DNA of 32,000 nucleotides from Oscillospiraceae bacterium (GTDB lineage: Bacteria; Bacillota; Clostridia; Oscillospirales; Oscillospiraceae): positions 38,738 to 70,737 of the forward strand of contig JAFXPO010000009.1 in NCBI GenBank assembly GCA_017527825.1, in the 5' to 3' direction. Below are positions 13,384 to 32,000 of this stretch, one piece after another. Position 1 is the stretch's first letter. Every line of letters begins with the position of its first letter. Under the pieces are notes generated by a model, which had not been told where the DNA came from, ran no database searches, and saw only the letters and a program-made list of their open reading frames with translations. The position numbers and the translations under genes are program-made.

Positions 13384-13520
13384 CCTCCGCGCTCTGCCAC
13401 GGAACCGGCGCCCTTGCGGCGCATGAATGGTCCCGCTTAATGCTGCTCGGTTCCCCGCCTGACATGGTTCGCGGGTATTCATCGCGCAAGACCGGTTCCG
13501 CAGCAGACTGCGGAGGACAA
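13384..13520 (-). ncRNA. ffs: signal recognition particle RNA (short form)
   Basis: Minus strand contains GAACCATGTCAGGCGGGGAACCGAGCAGCATTAAGCGGGACCATTCATGCGCCGCAAGG. This is near-identical in pattern to B. subtilis scRNA domain IV (GAACCAUGUCAGGUCCGGAAGGAAGCAGCAUUAAGUG...CAUGUGCCGCAGGG). Closing helix is CCTCCGC...CGGAACCGG / CCGGTTCCG...GCGGAGG. Conserved position upstream of dnaX. Ends are approximate (+/-5 nt). Confidence 0.85.
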
Positions 13521-13668: not shown

Positions 13669-13744
13669 GGGCCTGTAGCTCAGTTGGGAGAGCGTACGGT
13701 TCGCATCCGTAAGGTCGTGGGTTCGAATCCCTTCAGGTCCACCA
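13669..13744 (+). tRNA. tRNA-Ala (anticodon CGC), CCA encoded
   Basis: Cloverleaf by hand: acceptor GGGCCTG/CAGGTCC with G3:U70, D arm GCTC/GAGC, anticodon loop TTCGCAT (CGC at 13702-13704), T loop TTCGAAT. The T stem GTGGG/CCCTT has one U:U mismatch and one G:U pair. Confidence 0.9.
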
Positions 13745-22158: not shown

Positions 22159-22476
22159 ATGATCTGCTTCTTCATTGGGCACCGTAATGCTCCTGAGGCA
22201 CTGCGCACGCTATTGGAAAAAGCGGTGGAACGGCATATTACCGAGTGCGAAGTGACTGAGTTTGTTGTCGGGCACTATGGACGTTTTGACTATATGGCGG
22301 CAGGTGCTGTCAGGGCGGCAAAAAAGCGCCACCCGGAGGTAACGCTTACGTTGCTTCTGCCGTATTATCCGTTTTTGCATGATACATCCGATTATGACCG
22401 GACCTATTATCCGGAAGGTTTGGAAACCGTGCCGAAGCCCTATGCCATCATTCGAGCGAATCAGTATATGGTACGG
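22159..22476 (+). pseudogene. SLOG/DUF1273 (YpsA-like) family gene, 5' fragment, interrupted by IS21-family element
   Basis: MICFFIGHRNAPE...VVGHYGRFDYMAAGAV...PKPYAIIRANQYMVR, then reads into the IS terminal repeat (C, stop). Confidence 0.7.
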
Positions 22477-22666
22477 TGTTAGCGTCCAACGATAACCGCC
22501 AAAAAGAGTCCATCAGAAATCACCAATATGAGGCCAAATGAGAAAGCCATTTCCTCCAGCTTTCAAATCCTCTATACTGGGTAAAAGCCAACAACTCAGC
22601 AAAGGAGGACTATGAAAACATGCGAAAATGGCTTTGAGCCCAGTATAGCACAAGCCCATCGAGGAA

Positions 22667-23932
22667 ATGAAAGCGGAACAGGGGAAAAACTTTTCCCTGG
22701 AGCGGATCAATCTGGCCGAGTTGGAGCGGCGCACGGGCGTTTCCCGCGCAAGGCTCAGAAGACTGAAGGCAAACAACTACCAAGTCAAGCCTCACGCTTC
22801 CAAGGGCAAACGCCCCAAGGCAACCGTCCTGAGCGGCTATTCCGCTGTCTTGGATGCCCTGCTGACACAGGGGATAGCGAATTCATCCGTACTTCTCCAG
22901 CGGTTGCAGGCAGAGGGTTATACCGGAAGCCTGACGACGGTGAAGCGGTATATCCAGAGCCACCGCTCACTTATCCCTGCAAAACGTCAGCTCGTCGCGC
23001 CGCAAGGCAGCCGCGGAAGCAGATACACTACGGCGCCCGGAGAAACTTACCAGATGGACTGGGGCTTTACAAAGGTGGCAGATTACACCGGGAACGAATT
23101 TCAGGCAGCTTGCTTTGCCGTGATCTGCCACCACTGCGGACAGCGGTATATTGAGTTCTTTCCCAACGCCAAGCAGGAAAATCTCTTCATCGGGATGATC
23201 CACGCGTTTCGCTACATGGGTGTGCCTCGGTATGTCCTGACGGACAACATGAAGAGCGTGGTGATTCGGAGAGACTTTTCCGGTTTCCCAATCTGGCAGA
23301 AAGACTATGAGGCTTTTATGGGTACGGTGGGCTTCCAAACGAAGCTCTGCAAACCCAGGCATCCGTTTACCAAAGGAAAAGTGGAGCGGCTCGTCCGCTT
23401 CGTGAAGGAAAACTTCCTCGCCGACCGGGCATTCTGGAACGTGACGGATTTGAACCGCGCCGCGCTGGAATGGTGCAACAGGCAGAATACAGTCTACCAC
23501 CGTGCATTAGGCTTCGTTCCGCAGGAACTGCATCTTACGAACTGCGCCGCCAGCCTCTCACAGCTGGAGGACAGCCTTTCCCTGCGGTTCTATCTCGCCC
23601 CAGAGCGGAAGATCTCGTTCGATGGTTTTATCAATTACGAGGGGCGGCGTTTTGGCGTACCATACAGCTACCGAGGTAGCACCGCCCGTATCGCGCGGGA
23701 AGACGATATGATCTACATCTACTCGGCCGATGCGCGGGATCTGCTTGCCACCTACGAGGTAACATGGTCCAAGCGGGACCGTTTCTGCAAGGACCAGTAT
23801 CTGGATGTACGCCAGCCCGAGGAGTTTCCCACGGCGCCTGTCCGAACCACCATGACCATGCTGGAGGAACCCAAGCAAGACCTGACCTTTGACAAGTTTG
23901 ACTTCGACAAGGGGGTGGTCTGGGATGAATGA
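22667..23932 (+). CDS. istA: IS21-family transposase IstA
   Basis: HTH INLAELERRTGVSRARLRRL. DDE region YQMDWGF...VLTDNMKSVV...RHPFTKGKVERLV. 421 aa. Confidence 0.92.
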   Translation: MKAEQGKNFSLERINLAELERRTGVSRARLRRLKANNYQVKPHASKGKRPKATVLSGYSAVLDALLTQGIANSSVLLQRLQAEGYTGSLTTVKRYIQSHRSLIPAKRQLVAPQGSRGSRYTTAPGETYQMDWGFTKVADYTGNEFQAACFAVICHHCGQRYIEFFPNAKQENLFIGMIHAFRYMGVPRYVLTDNMKSVVIRRDFSGFPIWQKDYEAFMGTVGFQTKLCKPRHPFTKGKVERLVRFVKENFLADRAFWNVTDLNRAALEWCNRQNTVYHRALGFVPQELHLTNCAASLSQLEDSLSLRFYLAPERKISFDGFINYEGRRFGVPYSYRGSTARIAREDDMIYIYSADARDLLATYEVTWSKRDRFCKDQYLDVRQPEEFPTAPVRTTMTMLEEPKQDLTFDKFDFDKGVVWDE

Positions 23933-24116
23933 GCCCGTATTTGAACGTGTGGAGCGGTGTAGCGATATCCTCAAGCTGGATTTTTCCTCTGCCGAGTTGG
24001 CACATCTTGCCGAGGAGCATGAACTCTCACCCGAGGCTGTGGATGCGATTGCATTGGTTTTTGAGATCTCTCCGCCAAGAAAACGGAGACGACGATCCAG
24101 ACAATCCTCAAGATGA
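23925..24116 (+). pseudogene. istB: IstB N-terminal segment, in a different reading frame from the ATPase core
   Basis: MNEPVFERVERCSDILKLDFSSAELAHLAEEHELSPEAVDAIALVFE resembles the helical IstB N-terminus. ATG overlaps the istA stop (ATGAATGA). The frame ends at TGA 24114-24116, while the core continues in the -1 frame. Confidence 0.55.
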
Positions 24117-24724
24117 GCAGGCTGCCGCTGAAAGATCCGAAGACCTTTGAGACCTTTGATTTCTCTGTGATAAAGGGGAAAGATGTGGAGCGGCTCAAGG
24201 CGCTGCCATCCCTGTCCGCCATCTACGCGCATAAAAATCTTGCCTTCATCGGGCCTGCCGGTACCGGGAAAACGCATCTTGCGCAGGCTTTCGGCTTTGA
24301 ATGCTGCAAGCATGGCATGAAGACGTACTTCATAAAAATGTCCGAGTTGCGAGACAAGTTTACCGCCGCCAGGCGAACCGGCAAGGAGGCGTCCGCTCTG
24401 ACCAGCCTCGTCAGGCCGTCCTGCCTGATTATTGACGAGGTGGGACACTGCGAGTTTGACAAGGCGAATACGCGGCTGTTCTTTGACCTCATTGACCGCC
24501 GGTACAACAAGGAAGGCCCATACAACACCATCTTCACCAGCAACAAGAACCCTGCGCTCTGGCGGAGCAACTTTAACGAGGACGATGCGCTGCTTTGCGC
24601 TCTGGACCGTATTTTTGACGACGCGACCGTGTTTAAGATCCGTGGCGAGAGCTTCCGTGGAAAGAAGTTGGAGACGGTGGCGCTGCAAACCGGCAGAGTA
24701 AAGACAAATGAACCAAGCGAATAA
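24113..24724 (+). CDS. istB: IS21-family helper ATPase IstB (AAA+ core)
   Basis: KTFETFDFS, Walker A FIGPAGTGKTHLA, Walker B CLIIDEVG, IFTSNKNP. The frame is open upstream to 24065 (DLSAKKTETTIQTILK). Confidence 0.88.
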   Translation: MSRLPLKDPKTFETFDFSVIKGKDVERLKALPSLSAIYAHKNLAFIGPAGTGKTHLAQAFGFECCKHGMKTYFIKMSELRDKFTAARRTGKEASALTSLVRPSCLIIDEVGHCEFDKANTRLFFDLIDRRYNKEGPYNTIFTSNKNPALWRSNFNEDDALLCALDRIFDDATVFKIRGESFRGKKLETVALQTGRVKTNEPSE

Positions 24725-24821
24725 TTGAAAACACGTTGGCTGGGTTGTTGGCTTTTTTAAATGGCCTCCGATTGGTTGTTTTCGCTGGACTTTTTGCGGC
24801 GATTATTGCCGGACGCTAACA

Positions 24822-24969
24822 ACGGAACAGCGACTTCTTGATTTGCTACGACCGGAGAACCCCCGGAAACACAGGGGATATTGTGGATATGGCGCTGCGC
24901 CGGGAAGCAAAAGGATTGATGAGGGTTACCAATCTGGCTGAAGGCCTCGAACCACGAAAACGTAGTTGA
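24822..24969 (+). pseudogene. SLOG/DUF1273-like gene, 3' fragment
   Basis: NSDFLICYDRRTPGNTGDIVDMALRREAKGLMRVTNLAEGLEPRKRS stop. Removing the IS and one ACGG copy restores an in-frame ...NQYMVRNSDFLICYD... ORF of about 153 aa. Confidence 0.65.
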
Positions 24970-24974
24970 CCGAT

Positions 24975-25002
24975 TGCAAAATATAGGGGAAACGTGTATA
25001 AT
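24975..25002 (+). promoter_or_regulatory. sigma-70-type promoter of the R-M operon
   Basis: TTGCAA (24975-24980), 16-nt spacer, TATAAT (24997-25002). 78 nt upstream of ATG 25080. Confidence 0.55.
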
Positions 25003-25079
25003 ATGTAAAATAGGTGTAGTAGGCCTTTGCTTCGACAAACGAGCCGAACTGCCGCACATTCACTTTGGAGGGCAAAAAC

Positions 25080-25391
25080 ATGAACGACCAGCAAATAGAG
25101 CTGTTAATCAATATGCTTCGAGCGAAAGGACAAATCACTGACCTCGAAAAAGACATCATCGACACCTACCACGAGCTAAAAAAGCAGCCGGTCGATATGA
25201 ACTCCGCCTTTCGGCAGATGAAGTCGAACGAGCTAAACCATCCCGATGTGCTCTTGAAAGTGACTATGATGCCGACAACAGGGCAAAAGCAGGCTTCGGA
25301 GCTTACTGCCCAGGATTTGCTGTATGTCCTTTCAGCCCAGTTTACCTTTTTGCTTGAGAAAGAGGAAACTTCGCAACGCAGCGGCAACTGA
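25080..25391 (+). CDS. hypothetical 103-aa protein, first gene of the R-M operon
   Basis: ATG 25080 is 7 nt after GGAGGG. Helical-looking sequence, no family recognised. No terminator before hsdM (43-nt gap). Confidence 0.55.
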   Translation: MNDQQIELLINMLRAKGQITDLEKDIIDTYHELKKQPVDMNSAFRQMKSNELNHPDVLLKVTMMPTTGQKQASELTAQDLLYVLSAQFTFLLEKEETSQRSGN

Positions 25392-25434: not shown

Positions 25435-27039
25435 ATGCCGAAGAAAAAAGCCGAAGAGACGCTGAACCTTGACGCGATACTGTTCAAGTGCCGCGACATT
25501 CTGCGCGCGGCGCGCAATTCCGGATCGTTTTTTGAAAAGCGCGACATGATGCTCACACTCGTTTTTCTGCGCTTCATCGGGGAGAAATTCGAGGACGGCA
25601 TTGAAAATCTGCGCAATGAGTTGGTGAAACAAGGCCTTGACCCGGACGACCCGGATATCAAGGCCGCGTTTTTGGATGATCCAACCTTCACGGACGGAAC
25701 TTACAACCTTCTCCCGGAAGCGCGTTGGTCCACCATCATCAACACGGCCGCGCCGAATCTCAATGTTGCGCTCGATACCGCCTTGAGCAGCATCGCGGCG
25801 AATGACAGCCAGCTCAAGGGTTGCTTTGTGAAAGGTACATTTACCACGCGGAACCTTGCGCCGAACGATATCAAGAAGCTGGTCGATGAGGTCAACAAAA
25901 TCAGCCACAAGACCTTTGGCGAGGAAAAAGACCTGATCGGCCGCGTTTATGAATACTTCCTCAAAGAATTTGCGGTCAATGCGACGAAGGAGGAGGGCGA
26001 ATATTACACACCCCACGACGTGGTTGAGTTGATTGCCACCATGATTGAGCCGTTCGACGGCACATTGTACGACCCCTGCTGCGGGTCGGGCGGAATGTTC
26101 ATTCAGAGCGCCGAGCTGGTCAAGGCAAAGCGCGGCGATATCAGCCGCATTAACGTCTATGGGCAGGAGAAAGAACCCGCAACCTACCGTCTGGCGAAGA
26201 TGAACCTCGCCCTGCGTGGAATCAGTCATCATCTCGGCGACGAGGCTGACTCGTCTTTTACGCACGATCTGCACAAGGGCTTGTATTTCAACTACATCAT
26301 GGCAAATCCGCCATTCAATCTGAAGGGCTGGTTTAACGACAATCTGAAAGGCGATCCGCGCTGGACGGATTATGAGACGCCGCCGGAGAGCAACGCGAAT
26401 TATGCATGGATTCTCCACATTCTTTCCCACTTGAAGCCGCTGGACGGCGTTGCTGGATTCCTGCTGGCAAACGGTGCCTTGGGCGACAGCGACACGCTTG
26501 CAATCAGGAAAAAGCTGATTGAAAACGACAAAGTCGAAGCTATCATTATCCTTCCCCGTGAGCTTTTTATTACAACGGATATCAGCGTCACGCTCTGGGT
26601 TCTGAATCAGAACAAAAAGGGCGGCGACTACCACGGCAGGGCGCTGCGCAACCGCGAGCACGAGATCCTTTTCATGGATCTTCGCACATGGACGGAAAAC
26701 CCCGTCAAGGGCGAAAACAAGAAAAAAGTGCGGCTTGATGCAGACCAAATCAAGCGGGCAGCGGACATTTATCACACATGGCAGGCGGAGGGGACGGACG
26801 GAACGCATTACGAAGTGCCGGAGCTATACCGCAGCGTCGGCATGACAGAGATTGAAAGGAATGGCTGGAGCCTCATTCCCAGCAAGTATATTGAGTTCAT
26901 CGACCACGATCTGGAAATTGACTTCCCTGCGGAAATGCAACGGATTCAGGCGGAGATGCGCGATGTGATCGCGCAGGAGAAGCAATCGCAGAAAATGTTG
27001 GAGGATGCGTTCAGGGGGATTGGGTATGGCATTGACTAA
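25435..27039 (+). CDS. hsdM: type I restriction-modification system methyltransferase subunit
   Basis: N-terminal HsdM region. GEYYTPHDVVELI, LYDPCCGSGGMF (motif I), IMANPPFNLKGW (motif IV NPPF). Confidence 0.95.
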   Translation: MPKKKAEETLNLDAILFKCRDILRAARNSGSFFEKRDMMLTLVFLRFIGEKFEDGIENLRNELVKQGLDPDDPDIKAAFLDDPTFTDGTYNLLPEARWSTIINTAAPNLNVALDTALSSIAANDSQLKGCFVKGTFTTRNLAPNDIKKLVDEVNKISHKTFGEEKDLIGRVYEYFLKEFAVNATKEEGEYYTPHDVVELIATMIEPFDGTLYDPCCGSGGMFIQSAELVKAKRGDISRINVYGQEKEPATYRLAKMNLALRGISHHLGDEADSSFTHDLHKGLYFNYIMANPPFNLKGWFNDNLKGDPRWTDYETPPESNANYAWILHILSHLKPLDGVAGFLLANGALGDSDTLAIRKKLIENDKVEAIIILPRELFITTDISVTLWVLNQNKKGGDYHGRALRNREHEILFMDLRTWTENPVKGENKKKVRLDADQIKRAADIYHTWQAEGTDGTHYEVPELYRSVGMTEIERNGWSLIPSKYIEFIDHDLEIDFPAEMQRIQAEMRDVIAQEKQSQKMLEDAFRGIGYGID

Positions 27040-28162
27040 ATGCACCCTTGGCGAGTTTATCGAACTCCGCGAGGTAACAAATGATGATCTCGCGTTCGGC
27101 TCAGAGGATGTGCGAGGCGTCAACAATTTGAAAAAACTCATGCTGACAAAAGCGGACATTAACGACCGCGATTTGTCCAAATTCCAAATCGTCTATCCCG
27201 GTGAGTTCGTATTTAACCATAGGACATCCAGAAATGGCAGCAAGTTCAGCATAGCATATAACGATGGTCAGAAACCGGTGATCTGCACAGAGGATTACGT
27301 TGTATTTCGGATCAAAGAGGACTCGAAAAAAGACCTTCTCGCCGAATGGCTGTATATGTTTTTCAATCGCCCGGAGTTTGACCGCTATGTAATTACCAAC
27401 TCATGGGGCAGCTCCACGGAATTCTATAATTGGGAAGATATCTGCGCTGTCGAGTTTTTGCGTCCCGATTATACCATTCAGAAAAAATACGTTGATATCT
27501 ACAAAGCCATGGTTGCCAATCAGCAGAGCTATGAGCACGGGTTGGAGGATTTGAAGCTCGTTTGCGATGGGTATATTGAGGATTTGCGGCGGAAGATGCC
27601 GTGTGAGAAGATTGGACCGTATATTGAGCGGCATGACGTGCGCAACGGCAGAGATGGGACAAAAAACGTTATGGGAATCAGTACCGCAAAGGTTTTCCGA
27701 AAGCCAACTTCAAAAGTGAATCTTGATGATCTTGCAAATTATAAAATAGTAAAACCGCGGCAACTTGGATTTGTCCAAACGACTCATAACGAAAAAGTGT
27801 TCGCTTATGCCTTTAATGACACGAATAATGATATAGCCGTTTCATCGGTATACGAAGTTTTTTCTACAGACGAAGAGTCTTTGTTGCCAGAGTATTTGGC
27901 CTTGTATTTTAACAGGAAAGAGTTTGACCGATATGCACGTTTCAACTCGTGGGGAACCGCGCGTGAAACATTTACATGGGCTGAACTTGTGGATGTTAGA
28001 ATACCCATTCCGGATATCAAGCTACAACATTCAATCGCAGAAATCTATGTAGCATATAATGCAAGAAAAAGAATCAATGAACAGCTAAAGGAACAAATTA
28101 AGGATATTTGCCCGATACTGGTAAAGGGGGCGTTGGAGGAGGCACAAAATGGAGAAGTATAG
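27026..28162 (+). CDS. hsdS: type I restriction-modification system specificity subunit
   Basis: Two TRD halves, each followed by a conserved helix (PEFDRYVITNSWGSSTEFYNWEDICAVEF / KEFDRYARFNSWGTARETFTWAELVDVRIPIP). ATG 27026 overlaps the hsdM end by 14 nt. Confidence 0.9.
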   Translation: MALTKCTLGEFIELREVTNDDLAFGSEDVRGVNNLKKLMLTKADINDRDLSKFQIVYPGEFVFNHRTSRNGSKFSIAYNDGQKPVICTEDYVVFRIKEDSKKDLLAEWLYMFFNRPEFDRYVITNSWGSSTEFYNWEDICAVEFLRPDYTIQKKYVDIYKAMVANQQSYEHGLEDLKLVCDGYIEDLRRKMPCEKIGPYIERHDVRNGRDGTKNVMGISTAKVFRKPTSKVNLDDLANYKIVKPRQLGFVQTTHNEKVFAYAFNDTNNDIAVSSVYEVFSTDEESLLPEYLALYFNRKEFDRYARFNSWGTARETFTWAELVDVRIPIPDIKLQHSIAEIYVAYNARKRINEQLKEQIKDICPILVKGALEEAQNGEV

Positions 28163-29561
28163 ATTTCATTTCAACGTACAATATGCCGCTGATTTGCGCA
28201 ATGCAGTTAATGATCGGCAAAAGCAGTCCATTGACAACGTTCACAAAGAAAAGCAAATCAAGGGCGATTATTACGCGTGGGGGCAGACGTGCGCTGCCAT
28301 GGATCGTTTAGAGGATACTCTCGACTATCTGAATAGCATTGAGCTTGGCGGACGGGGATGCAATCGGGCTGCTTTCGACTTTTACGATTTTATCAACAAC
28401 GCTTATGTTGTTATTGAGTGTATAAAAACGATTGGTCACATTTTCAGAGTTGACAATCATCTGATTGAAAGCATAGAGGCTTCTTCCTTAGTATTCGGAA
28501 GCAAGGAAAGCACAGATGGAAGATACTTCGAATATATTCGTTCGCTATGTGCGGTGCATCCGCTTTGCACAAATCGCCAGAACGAGTTTTTAAATGGCAG
28601 ACAATTTCACTGCTGCCCATTTGTGACTTGGCGAGATCATCCTTGCTGTGCAGGAAGCAGCAAGGCCGATTTGACAGCAATGATCTATCCATCTGATCGA
28701 TGGGACAAGCCGGTTCATCTGGGATTATATATTTCACAGTTTGAGCAGTATCTTGAAAAATGGATTGACCTGATACCACAAATCATTGAAGCAAAAAACA
28801 ATTATGCAGATGGCGAATACAAGCGTTTAAGAAGTGAGCAGATAAAAACACTTTCTGACTATTCAAATGATGCTGTTCAATATTTGGCATATCTAAAGGA
28901 AGAATACTGCAAAAGGTTTGACTATGGCGGCGATTATCTGTTTGATCACTTTATTCGTGTATTTTCAGCGGAAGTGTCAGACAACAGAAATACTGCACTC
29001 CTTGTCAAATACCGGAACGCCATAATTTATTCTTTGCAGTTTGAAAGAAACGCTCTGCAAAACATGAGCTACGATGGTTATGACAATACGGGGATAAAAT
29101 ATCCTGACCGCGGAATTGAAACAACGCTGTTCGACTCTTTGGATGACCCCAGCACCTACGAAAGTGCATTTTCTCCGTATTCCTATAATTTGGAGAAGTT
29201 GTCTTATTTAGAAGGCGATAGTTATAACTATTACAACAAGATTTACGCTCGCCAACTTTTGGAACCAATGAAAGAACTGATAAACCAATATGTTGCCTTT
29301 ACGAATCAGGAATCAGATGAAGAAACGATAGTTCTTGTTAATCTTGCGCTTTATTTGGAAGCTCTTACAAGGAAAAGCTCACTAAACAGAAACATTCCAA
29401 ACGAACTGAAATATCGCGTGAATGTACTGGCCGATGATCAATACAGCAGCATTTTTGCAGAAGATGCATCGGACGAGAGCGCAAATGATTCTACAGACAT
29501 TTTGCAGCGGCTGATTGAACAATACGGAGGTACCAGCCATGGCGAAGCTGAAAAACTATAA
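28149..29561 (+). CDS. unknown 470-aa protein embedded in the type I R-M operon (candidate R-M-linked defence effector)
   Basis: ATG 28149 is 6 nt after GGAGGAGG and overlaps the hsdS stop by 14 nt. Its own stop overlaps the hsdR start by 23 nt. Long uninterrupted AT-rich ORF. No Walker A. Contains R131-x5-H137 and a Cys/His cluster at aa 134-167. No family recognised. Confidence 0.8.
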   Translation: MEKYRFHFNVQYAADLRNAVNDRQKQSIDNVHKEKQIKGDYYAWGQTCAAMDRLEDTLDYLNSIELGGRGCNRAAFDFYDFINNAYVVIECIKTIGHIFRVDNHLIESIEASSLVFGSKESTDGRYFEYIRSLCAVHPLCTNRQNEFLNGRQFHCCPFVTWRDHPCCAGSSKADLTAMIYPSDRWDKPVHLGLYISQFEQYLEKWIDLIPQIIEAKNNYADGEYKRLRSEQIKTLSDYSNDAVQYLAYLKEEYCKRFDYGGDYLFDHFIRVFSAEVSDNRNTALLVKYRNAIIYSLQFERNALQNMSYDGYDNTGIKYPDRGIETTLFDSLDDPSTYESAFSPYSYNLEKLSYLEGDSYNYYNKIYARQLLEPMKELINQYVAFTNQESDEETIVLVNLALYLEALTRKSSLNRNIPNELKYRVNVLADDQYSSIFAEDASDESANDSTDILQRLIEQYGGTSHGEAEKL

Positions 29562-32000
29562 CGGTCGCTTTTGCGAGTCGGAATTTGAAAATGCCTTCCT
29601 TTCCTATCTGGAGGCAGAGGACTGGCAGTATCTTGCCGGAAACAGCATGGCGCGCCGTTCCAAGCGCGACGTGCTGTATGAGGATGATCTGGAGCAGTTT
29701 TTGAGCAAGACAAATCCCGACCTGACCGCCGAAGAAGTCCGTCAGCTCATGGACACCGTCCGCCTCGTCGGCGCGGAGAGCGACTTTGCCACGCTGCACA
29801 AGGTATATGGCTGGATGGTCAATGGCATCCAGTTCACGCCGCAAAGTGGCGAGCCGCGTATGATTGCCCTGATTGATTTCGAGCATCCGGACAGCAATAT
29901 TTTCCGTGCCGTCAATCAATTCACCGTGGAATATACCAACAACGGACAGGTCGAAAATCGCCGCCCTGACATTCTCCTGTTTGTCAACGGTCTGCCTCTG
30001 TGCGTTATCGAGCTCAAAAACCCGGCGGACGCAAACGCTACGATCTATGATGCGTGGGAACAGATCAATATCCGCTACTGGCGCGACATCCCGCACCTGC
30101 TGCACTACTGTCCGCTGGCGTGTATCTCCGACGGCGTGAAAACGCGGCTGGGTACGGTTCGCACGCCCTATGAACACTTTTACGCATGGCGCCGCGTGAA
30201 CGAAGGAGACAAGGTATCCACGCTTCCCTTTGAAGAGACGCAGACCATGATCAAGGGCGTATACAGCCCGGAGCGCTTCCTTGAAATTTTCCGCGACTAC
30301 ATCTATTTTCAAGACAGCGAATACGACAGCGACGAAGTGGAAATCGTTTGCCGGTATCCGCAGTTCTTTGCCGCGCGCCTGCTGAAGCAGAGCATTATCA
30401 AATCTGTGGTTGCAAAGAGCGGAAAGGGCGGCACCTATTTCGGCGCGACCGGCTGCGGGAAAACCTATACGATGGCATTTCTTGCCCGTCAGCTTGCCCT
30501 GCGCTGCACGGATGTCCCGGAAATCGGTTCCCCCACGATCGTTATGATCGTTGACCGCGATGACCTGCAAAATCAGGGTTCAAAACTGTTTACCAAAAGC
30601 AACGAGTTCTTGAGCCTCGGCGAAGTCAGCGTTGTCCCGAGCCGCAAGGTGTTGAGAGAAGAACTCGGCGTGCGTGAAAGCGGCGGGTTTTATATCTGCA
30701 CCATTCAGAAGTTCTGCGACAGAAAAGACGATAAAATCGGCCTGATCAACAACCGCGCAAATATTATATGCTTCTCGGATGAGGCGCACCGCACACAGCT
30801 TGAACAGTCCAGACAGATCAAGTTCAGCAAGGACGCGGACAACAACATGAAAGCCATGGTGTCCAAGCCCTATGCCAAGGTTTTGCGGGAAGCCTTCCCA
30901 CACGCTACCTTTGTCGGCTTTACCGGCACGCCGATTTCCGAAACCTATCAAACCTTTGGCGATGAAATCGACCGCTATACGATGGATCAGGCGGTTGCCG
31001 ACGGTCTGACCGTTTCCATCAAGTATCATCCCCGGATTGCAAAAGTCCTGCTGGATCAGGAAAAAGTCAAGCTGATCGAGGAGTATTACAAAAAATGCGC
31101 CGACGACGGCGCGACCGAGGAGGATGTCGAGGCAAGCAAGAAGGCCATGAGTTCTATGGAGATCATTCTGGGCGAGCCCTCGCGCCTGGAGCGCCTTGCC
31201 GTGGATATCCATGACCACTATGTTTCGGCATGTGCCAACGATCCGGAGCGCGTGCAAAAGGCCATGATCGTTTGTTCCAGCAGAAAAATCGCTTATGACC
31301 TGCTGAAAAAGTTTCAGGATAAGTATCCGGAGTGGTTTGTGGAGAAGAAGACCCCGGATGGCGTCGCCGTTTCTGCGGAAGAGCTGAACAAATTGAAGCC
31401 CATGCCCTTTATTGCTATGGTGGCAAGCGTCGGAAAGAACGACGATAAAGACATGTACAATTATCTCGGCGGCGTCACAAATGATAAGCGCTCCGAGAAG
31501 CTTGATGTTGCCTTCAAACAGGAAAAGTCAAATTTCCGCATCGTTATTGTCGTCGATATGTGGATCACGGGATTTGACGTTCCCTCGCTTACATACATGT
31601 ACAACGACAAACCTCTGAAAAAGCATATGCTGATCCAGACCATCAGCCGTGTAAACAGGAAATACCCTGGCAAGGAGTACGGCCTGATCGTCGATTATAT
31701 CGGCATTCGTGACAATATGCGCGAAGCCATGAAGATGTATGGCGGCGACAGCTCCGTCGCGCCCACATCCGATGACATTGAACAGGCGACCGGCGTATTT
31801 AGAGAGGAACTTCTTACCCTCAAGAACCTCTTTACGGGCTACGATTTGACGCCCTTCCTCAATCCGGCCGGAGACCCCGCTAAGAGATACAGACTGCTGG
31901 CAAAAGCTGCCGAGTATGTCTTTGTGTCTACGGAAGAGTTGAACTCCACCAGCAAAAGCGGAAAGAGCGTCCAGAAGGTGTCTTTTAAAACGTATTTTCT
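29539..32000 (+). CDS. hsdR: type I restriction endonuclease subunit R, 3' partial (runs off window)
   Basis: Translated by hand: MAKLKNYNGRFCESEFENAFLSYLE...RRPDILLFVNGLPLCVIELKNP (HsdR_N nuclease motif), GATGCGKTYTMAF (Walker A), IICFSDEAHRTQ (DEAH), FVGFTGTPI. Frame open from 29539 to 32000. Absent from the ORF track because it has no stop in the window. Confidence 0.93.
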   Translation, partial: MAKLKNYNGRFCESEFENAFLSYLEAEDWQYLAGNSMARRSKRDVLYEDDLEQFLSKTNPDLTAEEVRQLMDTVRLVGAESDFATLHKVYGWMVNGIQFTPQSGEPRMIALIDFEHPDSNIFRAVNQFTVEYTNNGQVENRRPDILLFVNGLPLCVIELKNPADANATIYDAWEQINIRYWRDIPHLLHYCPLACISDGVKTRLGTVRTPYEHFYAWRRVNEGDKVSTLPFEETQTMIKGVYSPERFLEIFRDYIYFQDSEYDSDEVEIVCRYPQFFAARLLKQSIIKSVVAKSGKGGTYFGATGCGKTYTMAFLARQLALRCTDVPEIGSPTIVMIVDRDDLQNQGSKLFTKSNEFLSLGEVSVVPSRKVLREELGVRESGGFYICTIQKFCDRKDDKIGLINNRANIICFSDEAHRTQLEQSRQIKFSKDADNNMKAMVSKPYAKVLREAFPHATFVGFTGTPISETYQTFGDEIDRYTMDQAVADGLTVSIKYHPRIAKVLLDQEKVKLIEEYYKKCADDGATEEDVEASKKAMSSMEIILGEPSRLERLAVDIHDHYVSACANDPERVQKAMIVCSSRKIAYDLLKKFQDKYPEWFVEKKTPDGVAVSAEELNKLKPMPFIAMVASVGKNDDKDMYNYLGGVTNDKRSEKLDVAFKQEKSNFRIVIVVDMWITGFDVPSLTYMYNDKPLKKHMLIQTISRVNRKYPGKEYGLIVDYIGIRDNMREAMKMYGGDSSVAPTSDDIEQATGVFREELLTLKNLFTGYDLTPFLNPAGDPAKRYRLLAKAAEYVFVSTEELNSTSKSGKSVQKVSFKTYF

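Follow-up and report, generated by a model that had tools for sequence, protein, structure and literature searches.

It has been recognized that operons encoding restriction-modification (R-M) enzymes can harbour genes for additional lines of defence. For example, the anticodon nuclease PrrC of Escherichia coli is encoded at the prr locus within the EcoprrI operon, in the order hsdM-hsdS-prrC-hsdR (PMC3710099), and at least 16 clades of HEPN proteins have been linked to R-M operons (PMC3710099). TgvAB, a GmrSD-like type IV system demonstrated experimentally, is embedded in the type I operon of Vibrio cholerae VPI-2 (PMC11411939), AbiJ proteins constitute an abortive-infection family (Anantharaman et al. 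2013), and RonA, the effector of Ronin, is a 61-amino-acid membrane protein which, like PrrC, is controlled by Hsd proteins. A systematic survey has furthermore indicated that embedding predicts a defence function, with seven new systems confirmed and 145 candidates predicted, including single-gene PDC-S candidates proposed through guilt-by-embedding because they lie within operons of BREX, DISARM or type I R-M systems, and with PrrC being almost exclusively R-M embedded (Payne et al., bioRxiv 10.1101/2024.01.29.577857). The present analysis concerns a protein of 470 amino acids, here named X, which is encoded within a type I R-M operon, between its hsdS and hsdR genes, in a Clostridia genome, namely within a stretch of 32,000 nucleotides (the window; positions 38,738 to 70,737 of contig JAFXPO010000009.1, assembly GCA_017527825.1) from an Oscillospiraceae bacterium. 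On balance, though with modest confidence, the sequence evidence favours the view that X is a self-contained, horizontally exchanged, single-gene cargo directed against phages or other mobile elements, which belongs to an undescribed family and occupies the hsdS-hsdR embedding slot.

The open reading frame (ORF) of X runs from an ATG start over positions 28149-29561 of the forward strand, and it is not a product of chance, because the longest ORF in 200 shuffles of positions 27001-30000 had a mean length of 109 and a maximum of 177 amino acids, as opposed to the 470 of X. A first-pass annotation of this DNA had read the operon as hsdM, hsdS, X and hsdR, with overlaps of 14, 14 and 23 nucleotides at the successive junctions and with ribosome-binding sites inside the preceding genes, and this layout was borne out. 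The overlap of hsdS with X covers positions 28149-28162 and that of X with hsdR positions 29539-29561, while the hsdM/hsdS overlap of 14 nucleotides holds for an hsdS start at ATG 27026; the longest ORF of hsdS begins upstream, at 27005, and the start at 27026 is backed by homologous operons in which the called hsdS gene overlaps hsdM by 14 nucleotides. Promoter-like sites (10 versus 7.3 +/- 2.7 expected) and terminator-like sites (7 versus 6.4 +/- 2.7 expected) inside the operon are at chance level. The arrangement supports co-expression and translational coupling of X with the operon, whose transcription X would use in place of a promoter of its own. It had also been claimed that X is expressed stoichiometrically with the restriction complex; the tight coupling sustains the co-expression contained in this claim, whereas equal expression exceeds what can be read from a sequence. 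The G+C content of X (0.409) is close to that of hsdS (0.433) and, in line with the same annotation, lower than those of hsdM (0.531) and hsdR (0.523), the first 22 kb of the window having a value of 0.60. In its position between hsdS and hsdR, X matches PrrC exactly, and it resembles the latter also in being a single extra gene which is co-expressed with a type I enzyme, a plausible setting for a second line of defence.

With respect to its identity, X is assignable to no described family or fold, and both the protein family and the predicted fold appear to be new. No match at E<=1 was obtained for X in Pfam, NCBIfam or PADLOC-DB v2 (PrrC and PDC models included), and a search of PHROGs returned a single line with E=0.1, so that no mobilome or housekeeping family was matched in Pfam, NCBIfam or PHROGs. 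The miss in PADLOC v2 is informative because that release contains the PDC models of Payne et al., and these are matched by genes adjoining X homologs (PDC-S49, PDC-S20, PDC-S35 and PDC-S31); X together with five distant homologs matches no PADLOC v2 model, the PDC models among them. A Pfam scan of 34 distant family members gave chance-level lines only, the homologs from E. coli, Bacillus and a phage yielded nothing in Pfam and PADLOC scans, and those from Lachnospiraceae (L007) and Brachyspira yielded nothing in a PADLOC scan. Sequence searches of the PDB with X and with four X-family profiles produced nothing significant. Foldseek likewise returned no match at E<=0.001, neither for the full-length X model against PDB and BFVD (best E >0.7, template-modelling (TM) score ~0.1) nor for a model of the N-terminal domain against PDB (best E 0.43, TM<=0.33). 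As had been anticipated, X therefore fits no Abi, toxin, nuclease or NTPase family in Pfam, PADLOC, NCBIfam, PHROGs, PDB or Foldseek searches. It is in particular distinct from PrrC and RloC, as it has no Walker A motif ([AG]x4GK[ST]), no GK[ST] of any kind, no Pfam match to AAA or ABC domains and no match to PADLOC, NCBIfam or Pfam models at E<=1, and its fold is unrelated or unrecognisable. A weak profile line recurred between X residues 5-59 (28161-28325) and residues 59-116 of three MatP sequences (E 0.07-0.6); this line is best regarded as noise and at most as a hint of a ribbon-helix or strand-helix DNA-binding element.

The family itself is sizeable. Homologs of X form 233 clusters at E<=1e-3 in a protein collection clustered at 90% identity, none of them with a Pfam domain or a name, and a profile search of 1.84 billion representatives at 50% identity retrieved 547 sequences at E<=1e-3, of which 309 pass E<=1e-10 and 128 pass E<=1e-30. 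Every database name in the family reads 'hypothetical' or 'uncharacterized protein', and members occur in Bacillota (Clostridia, Bacillus, Latilactobacillus), Spirochaetota (Brachyspira), Enterobacterales and Vibrio. A literature search on the E. coli member WP_001459672 found nothing. It is probable that the family was missed by the PDC survey as it is rare in RefSeq and derives mostly from gut metagenomes, and apparently because uncultured gut Clostridia are its main hosts.

Sister operons indicate how X relates to its host operon. The HsdM family concerned is associated with the gut and very large, with at least 7,936 clusters at E<=1e-100 versus the 233 clusters of X. The best 120 HsdM relatives are 86-95% identical, and some of them are labelled Clostridia, Synergistes or Pyramidobacter; two (P0345 and P0358), 87-88% identical to the HsdM of the window, carry the labels Synergistes and Pyramidobacter, which belong to the Synergistota. 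Judging by these identities, this type I scaffold would seem to have crossed phylum boundaries among gut bacteria. At the nucleotide level, hsdM is 73-94% identical to its counterparts in related operons. X was present in none of three inspected operons with an HsdM 88-90% identical; in two of these X-less lineages a protein of 458-461 amino acids with an AbiJ_NTD3/NTD4 domain lies between hsdS and hsdR, and in the third GmrSD and other genes follow hsdM. The AbiJ-type protein matches X in slot, size and coupling. The hsdS gene is variable except for short central and 3' conserved stretches, and only its parts 27351-27621 and 27919-28140 align to the AbiJ-type operons. The break at 28140 falls 9 nucleotides before the start of X, and homology resumes about 20 nucleotides before the start of hsdR. 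Because DNA homology breaks at these points, the edges of the cassette are the edges of the gene, the end codons of X reading into the conserved hsdR leader. Homology between X and the slot-sharing AbiJ_NTD3/NTD4 protein was considered and rejected (hhalign probability 0.05%), and X has no Pfam match to the AbiJ N-terminal or Abi_C HEPN domains; going by their shared boundaries, the two proteins appear to be functionally interchangeable cargo.

Some operons with the same scaffold carry X along with a second embedded gene, which encodes a KAP NTPase (PDC-S49) or, in three lineages, a CAP12/PCTIR-type TIR protein (PDC-S35); from their PADLOC 'PDC-S' names, we take these partners to be single-gene candidates. 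An obligatory two-gene module of X with the KAP NTPase or the TIR protein was rejected, as such partners are found in some loci only and their order relative to X varies. X is comparable to the PDC-S candidates in that it is encoded between, and in the orientation of, the genes of an intact type I R-M operon, recurs in about 13 lineages and shares its slot with PDC-S49 and PDC-S35, while other family members adjoin PDC-S20 and PDC-S31. The parallel with TgvAB, a two-gene DUF262/DUF1524-type nuclease, and with RonA consists in the nesting in, or attachment to, hsd genes of extra genes for defence or cell death, although these are different proteins without homology to X. The arrangement is of a known kind, in which X works genomically like PrrC, AbiJ-type cargo and the PDC-S genes, yet it is a member of none of these families. 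The first-pass annotation had held that X is not a passenger with its own promoter. As far as the passenger is concerned, this statement does not stand: from the cassette boundaries and its distribution, X is an exchangeable passenger cassette, an optional cargo rather than a subunit of the enzyme, which uses the transcription and coupling of the operon in place of its own promoter.

The genomic contexts of close homologs (>=45% identity) were read from 13 loci in genomes, 44 in metagenomes and 12 looked-up contigs, which together provide about 24 informative lineages, on contigs that are often short. A strong enrichment in R-M and defence neighbourhoods was found. [quoted passage not shown] Three of the latter place X just upstream of a mod gene or mod fragment, with X in locus L066 overlapping by 14 nucleotides a gene that matches PADLOC MTase_III at 4e-191, and in the fourth X follows a REase_III-like helicase gene. 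The remaining close lineages adjoin a serine recombinase and KAP NTPase (PDC-S20), AbiEii, a HATPase_c_4/winged helix-turn-helix protein, a GIY-YIG protein or an SLFN-like helicase, and one places X among ordinary genes. In a quick neighbour-joining distance tree, type I-embedded, type III-linked and stand-alone copies interleave, which argues that the gene changed its context repeatedly. As a separate observation, an unannotated protein of 261-288 amino acids is found in two settings: the X-linked type III operon encodes it between its mod and res genes (L066, 7406-8191), and at 29% identity it immediately precedes hsdM in a type I operon with TIR and X (L063, 585-1451). Neither copy has a Pfam or PADLOC match, and they may represent a further R-M-associated accessory family.

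More distant relatives extend the family to mobile elements. Homologs at 24-37% identity, from plasmids of the Bacillus cereus group, plasmids of E. coli, Salmonella, Shigella and Vibrio, and a temperate phage of Latilactobacillus, retain N62, D123, R131, H137, P138, Y180, R256 and Y346. The E. coli homolog WP_001459672.1 (362 amino acids) is present at >=99% identity in 29 of 5,426 complete genomes. It adjoins AbiH and a PIN_12 protein on the IncX4 mcr-1 plasmid pEC111 (L073), and the same trio is found on a chromosomal island of E. coli 13E0767 (L076), next to a gene for a tyrosine recombinase, a truncated umuC and two more hypothetical genes. The near-identity across these 29 genomes indicates recent mobility of the trio. 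On Bacillus plasmids the homolog lies beside an integrase, and a distant clade adjoins Gabija and an integrase. In the Latilactobacillus phage the gene is situated between the integrase and helix-turn-helix (HTH) genes and the lysis genes, a typical place of prophage-borne exclusion genes. In six loci of the most remote X-like clade (L050 and L053-L057; for example L055, 5515-6549 and 7001-7945), the gene directly upstream encodes a DUF2971 protein (PDC-S31), and in one of them (L056) the pair follows hsdR and hsdM, within another hsdR-hsdM cluster; DUF2971 and the X-like protein may form a conserved two-gene module. In locus L042 a distant homolog precedes a distant hsdR. In a distant clade, X-like genes or fragments form a tandem pair with a spacing of about 2 kb, at locus L051 (4239-4646 and 6409-7245) and likewise at L052. 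Since stand-alone homologs exist, the family is autonomous and needs no R-M partner.

An AlphaFold2 model of X was built from 45 homologs and reached a mean predicted local distance difference test (pLDDT) score of 87.2 and a predicted TM score (pTM) of 0.77, with an alpha+beta domain, an all-helical domain and a poorly ordered acidic tail (Table). Conservation was evaluated over 88 full-length representatives of the family. The N-terminal domain contains the majority of the invariant polar residues, namely R53 (98%), N62 (89%), D123 (99%), R131 (100%), H137 (100%), T141 (99%) and Y180, accompanied by P138 (94%) and S132 (92%), and in the helical domain conservation is highest at Y245 (91%), R256 (95%), Q304 (88%), Y346 (86%) and K350 (89%). 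Each of these near-invariant positions holds a polar or an aromatic residue, with a signature R-S-L-C-x-V-H-P-x-x-T. The motif Rx5HPxxT contained in this signature is the only one that is invariant through the entire family; it is also the least confident part of the model (pLDDT ~65) and is proposed as a candidate active-site loop. The overall pattern of conservation probably reflects an enzyme active site, and points to no particular chemistry. The acidic tail is present in the entire subfamily at >=48% identity and absent from distant clades; in the window it continues past YGG into the hsdR leader, the last residues being TSHGEAEKL.

Several known protein classes were compared with these features and rejected. 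HEPN domains are four-helix bundles with an Rx4-6H motif, and such a motif is present in X, where R131-x5-H137 is invariant in the 88 representatives and in the distant homologs. However, no HEPN Pfam model and, with either structural model, no HEPN structure was matched, hhalign gave a probability of 0.24% versus a HEPN protein, and in the model the motif occupies the end of a helix and a loop within an alpha+beta domain and not within a helical bundle. Fic/Doc proteins share with X only HP and a hydrophobic residue of HPFx[D/E]GNGR; there was no Pfam Fic match, no Fic structure among the Foldseek PDB matches and an hhalign probability of 0.1% versus a Fic protein. A structural zinc site formed by C91, C134, C155, C156 and H154 was likewise discarded: the FHCC motif belongs to the close subfamily, and an obligatory zinc site is unlikely because the cysteines are 60-80% conserved family-wide.

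The X cassette rides in a widespread gut type I R-M operon, flanked by conserved arms formed by hsdM with the 3' part of hsdS and by hsdR, and if X is a cargo of the kind favoured here, its product would act as a second defence layer beside restriction. X would then be an enzyme with an active site built from N62, D123, R131-x5-H137, Y180, R256 and Y346, plus K350, that performs a metal-independent attack on nucleic acid, as an RNase-like or nuclease-like effector, and its activity would stop growth of the phage or of the infected cell. Metal-independent phosphoryl or nucleic-acid chemistry fits best because the residues comprise two Arg, His, Asp, Asn, Thr, two Tyr and Lys, with no metal-binding acidic cluster and no NTP-binding loop. 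An effector of this RNase-like or nuclease-like type is, with low confidence, the most likely mechanism. A number of observations weigh against this account. Nearly all type I-embedded cases share one R-M scaffold (HsdM 73-94% identical at the DNA level), so that independent embedding events are fewer than the loci; some homologs, including the one from Brachyspira, lie among housekeeping genes with no defence neighbour; a scan of IMG/VR viral contigs retrieved no relatives of X, and a single phage record carries one. Moreover, as no catalytic fold or motif was recognised, the terms 'enzyme' and 'nucleic-acid target' derive solely from the types of residues that are conserved.

Among the rival explanations, a guarded suicide effector in the manner of PrrC would have X latent on the type I or type III enzyme until an anti-restriction protein of the Ocr, ArdA or Stp type frees it to kill or arrest the cell. 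The prrC-like slot, the tight coupling to both hsdS and hsdR and the precedents of PrrC and Ronin are in its favour, as is the concentration of the close subfamily in type I and type III operons, the two ATP-dependent classes which, as one study reports, are both blocked by the DNA mimic Ocr (10.1101/2023.04.06.535777). The close subfamily, and not the distant stand-alone clades, furthermore has the acidic YGG tail as a possible docking or regulatory element, although any mediation by this (E/K)YGG tail of regulation through the R-M complex is speculative, and the tail is also found in close homologs outside R-M. Such tail-bearing close homologs without any R-M genes (L004, L018, L022, L032, L068), the distant homologs that stand alone on plasmids, integrative elements and a phage, in contrast to the R-M-embedded PrrC, and the lack of a PrrC-like regulatory NTPase domain make this explanation tentative and unlikely. 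An unlikely but far-reaching version is that X is the first member of a new enzyme fold and serves as an anti-anti-restriction trip-wire for ATP-dependent restriction enzymes. Bound in a silent state to type I or type III complexes, perhaps by its acidic YGG tail, it would be freed once a DNA-mimic or other anti-restriction protein of a phage disables the enzyme, and would then destroy an essential nucleic acid via its invariant Arg/His/Asp/Tyr centre. If true, this would mean that a PrrC-like strategy arose a second time, with an unrelated protein, and spread among gut Firmicutes.

It is quite improbable that X is a DNA-targeting, for instance modification-dependent, restriction-type nuclease which complements the type I enzyme as TgvAB does. 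GmrSD genes do often occur as cargo in, or as neighbours of, operons of this family, and TgvAB demonstrates the logic experimentally, but no PD-(D/E)xK, HNH, GIY-YIG, PLD or ParB/DUF262 signature or fold was detected in X. That X is no defence gene at all, and instead belongs to the accessory genes of mobile elements (selfish, addiction, counter-defence or otherwise unrelated), hitch-hiking in a recombination hotspot, would agree with its relatives carried by conjugative plasmids, by integrative elements and by a temperate phage, often beside recombinases, and with the contexts that contain no defence genes. This is nevertheless very improbable, given that the neighbours are overwhelmingly defence genes and not genes for transfer or replication, that Pfam shows no resemblance of X to mobilome families, and that an anti-restriction gene within a restriction operon would be self-defeating. 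Finally, an accessory subunit of the type I enzyme had been put forward in the first-pass annotation; an accessory or regulatory role of this kind, for instance in assembly, restriction alleviation or specificity, would account for the coupling of X to both neighbours and for its recurrence with the same HsdM/HsdR lineage. This role is extremely improbable and largely refuted by the distribution: the cluster counts of X and HsdM differ widely, the nearest X-less sister operons, with HsdM 88-90% identical, hold an unrelated AbiJ-type gene in the slot, and X is found in type III operons too, as well as apart from any R-M system, in contexts that interleave on the tree. The main intuition of that annotation, an unrecognisable candidate defence gene nested in an R-M operon, holds in view of these comparisons, and the exchangeable single-gene defence cargo remains the favoured explanation.

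Table. Features of the X locus and of the predicted X protein (positions in the window).
Feature	Position	Strand	Basis and remarks
X, 470-amino-acid protein of an unannotated family	28149..29561	+	acidic (isoelectric point 4.9), soluble; without hydrophobic segment
X N-terminal alpha+beta domain, residues 1-235	28149..28853	+	separate AlphaFold model, pLDDT 82.6, pTM 0.84
Codons of R131-S-L-C-A-V-H137-P-L-C-T141 (Rx5HPxxT)	28539..28571	+	conservation over 88 representatives and distant homologs
X C-terminal all-helical domain, about residues 236-430	28854..29438	+	AlphaFold model; conserved Y245, R256, Q304, Y346, K350
X acidic C-terminal tail, net charge -7, conserved (E/K)YGG end	29439..29558	+	sequence; poorly ordered in AlphaFold model
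Exchangeable cassette	28141..29513	+	blastn versus L077 and L081 (AbiJ-type sister operons): homology reaches to 28140 and is found again from 29514-29521
hsdM (type I methyltransferase subunit; conserved left scaffold arm)	25435..27039	+	Pfam N6_Mtase 4.6e-85 and HsdM_N; PADLOC MTase_I 8e-100
hsdS (specificity subunit)	27026..28162	+	PADLOC Specificity_I 8e-138; Pfam Methylase_S
hsdR (restriction subunit; conserved right scaffold arm), runs off the window end	29539..32000	+	Pfam HSDR_N, SWI2_SNF2, T1R_D3-like; PADLOC REase_I 6e-200
Shine-Dalgarno sequence of X, GGAGGAGG, within hsdS 3' end	28135..28142	+	read from sequence; 6 nucleotides before ATG 28149
Shine-Dalgarno sequence of hsdR, GGAGG, within X 3' end	29526..29530	+	read from sequence; 8 nucleotides before ATG 29539

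The surroundings of the operon also differ along the window. G+C content is about 0.60 over 1-22000 and, between roughly 21.5 kb and the window end, falls to about 0.50 or lower. A complete element of the IS21 family (22469-24829) lies about 600 bp upstream of hsdM, with istA at 22667-23932 (50.6% identity to IS21 transposases of Collinsella), an ORF for an istB-like ATPase at 24113-24724 and imperfect terminal inverted repeats of 81 nucleotides (22469-22549 and 24749-24829). The G+C drop suggests that the IS21 element and the R-M operon lie in an acquired island. Directly upstream of hsdM, an ORF of 108 amino acids (25065-25391, forward strand) had no significant match in Pfam or PHROGs and only a weak line in PADLOC (E 2.5e-4); just ahead of it lies the strongest promoter-like site in this region (24974-25002, with 10 of 12 matches), related operons carry an HTH_26 protein at its position, and it may be the first gene or the regulator of the operon. 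Further upstream, a bacterial small signal recognition particle (SRP) RNA (13399-13498, reverse strand, 73.5 bits) and a tRNA-Ala (CGC) gene (13669-13744, forward strand) identify that part of the window as core chromosome.

Genes nested in R-M, BREX, DISARM and Hma operons have recently been a rich source of anti-phage systems, and the X family escaped the survey of such genes. With about 550 representatives at 50% identity, this family is sizeable, and its predicted structure without a neighbour in the PDB makes it likely that its mechanism is new. The clean swap of X for an AbiJ-type gene, at the same boundaries, presents type I operons as docking sites for interchangeable second-line defences. 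As one of many embedded candidates, X is, by these comparisons, a well-supported and experimentally accessible one, and the occurrence of WP_001459672.1 on IncX4 mcr-1 plasmids and integrative elements of E. coli renders the X family testable in a model organism.

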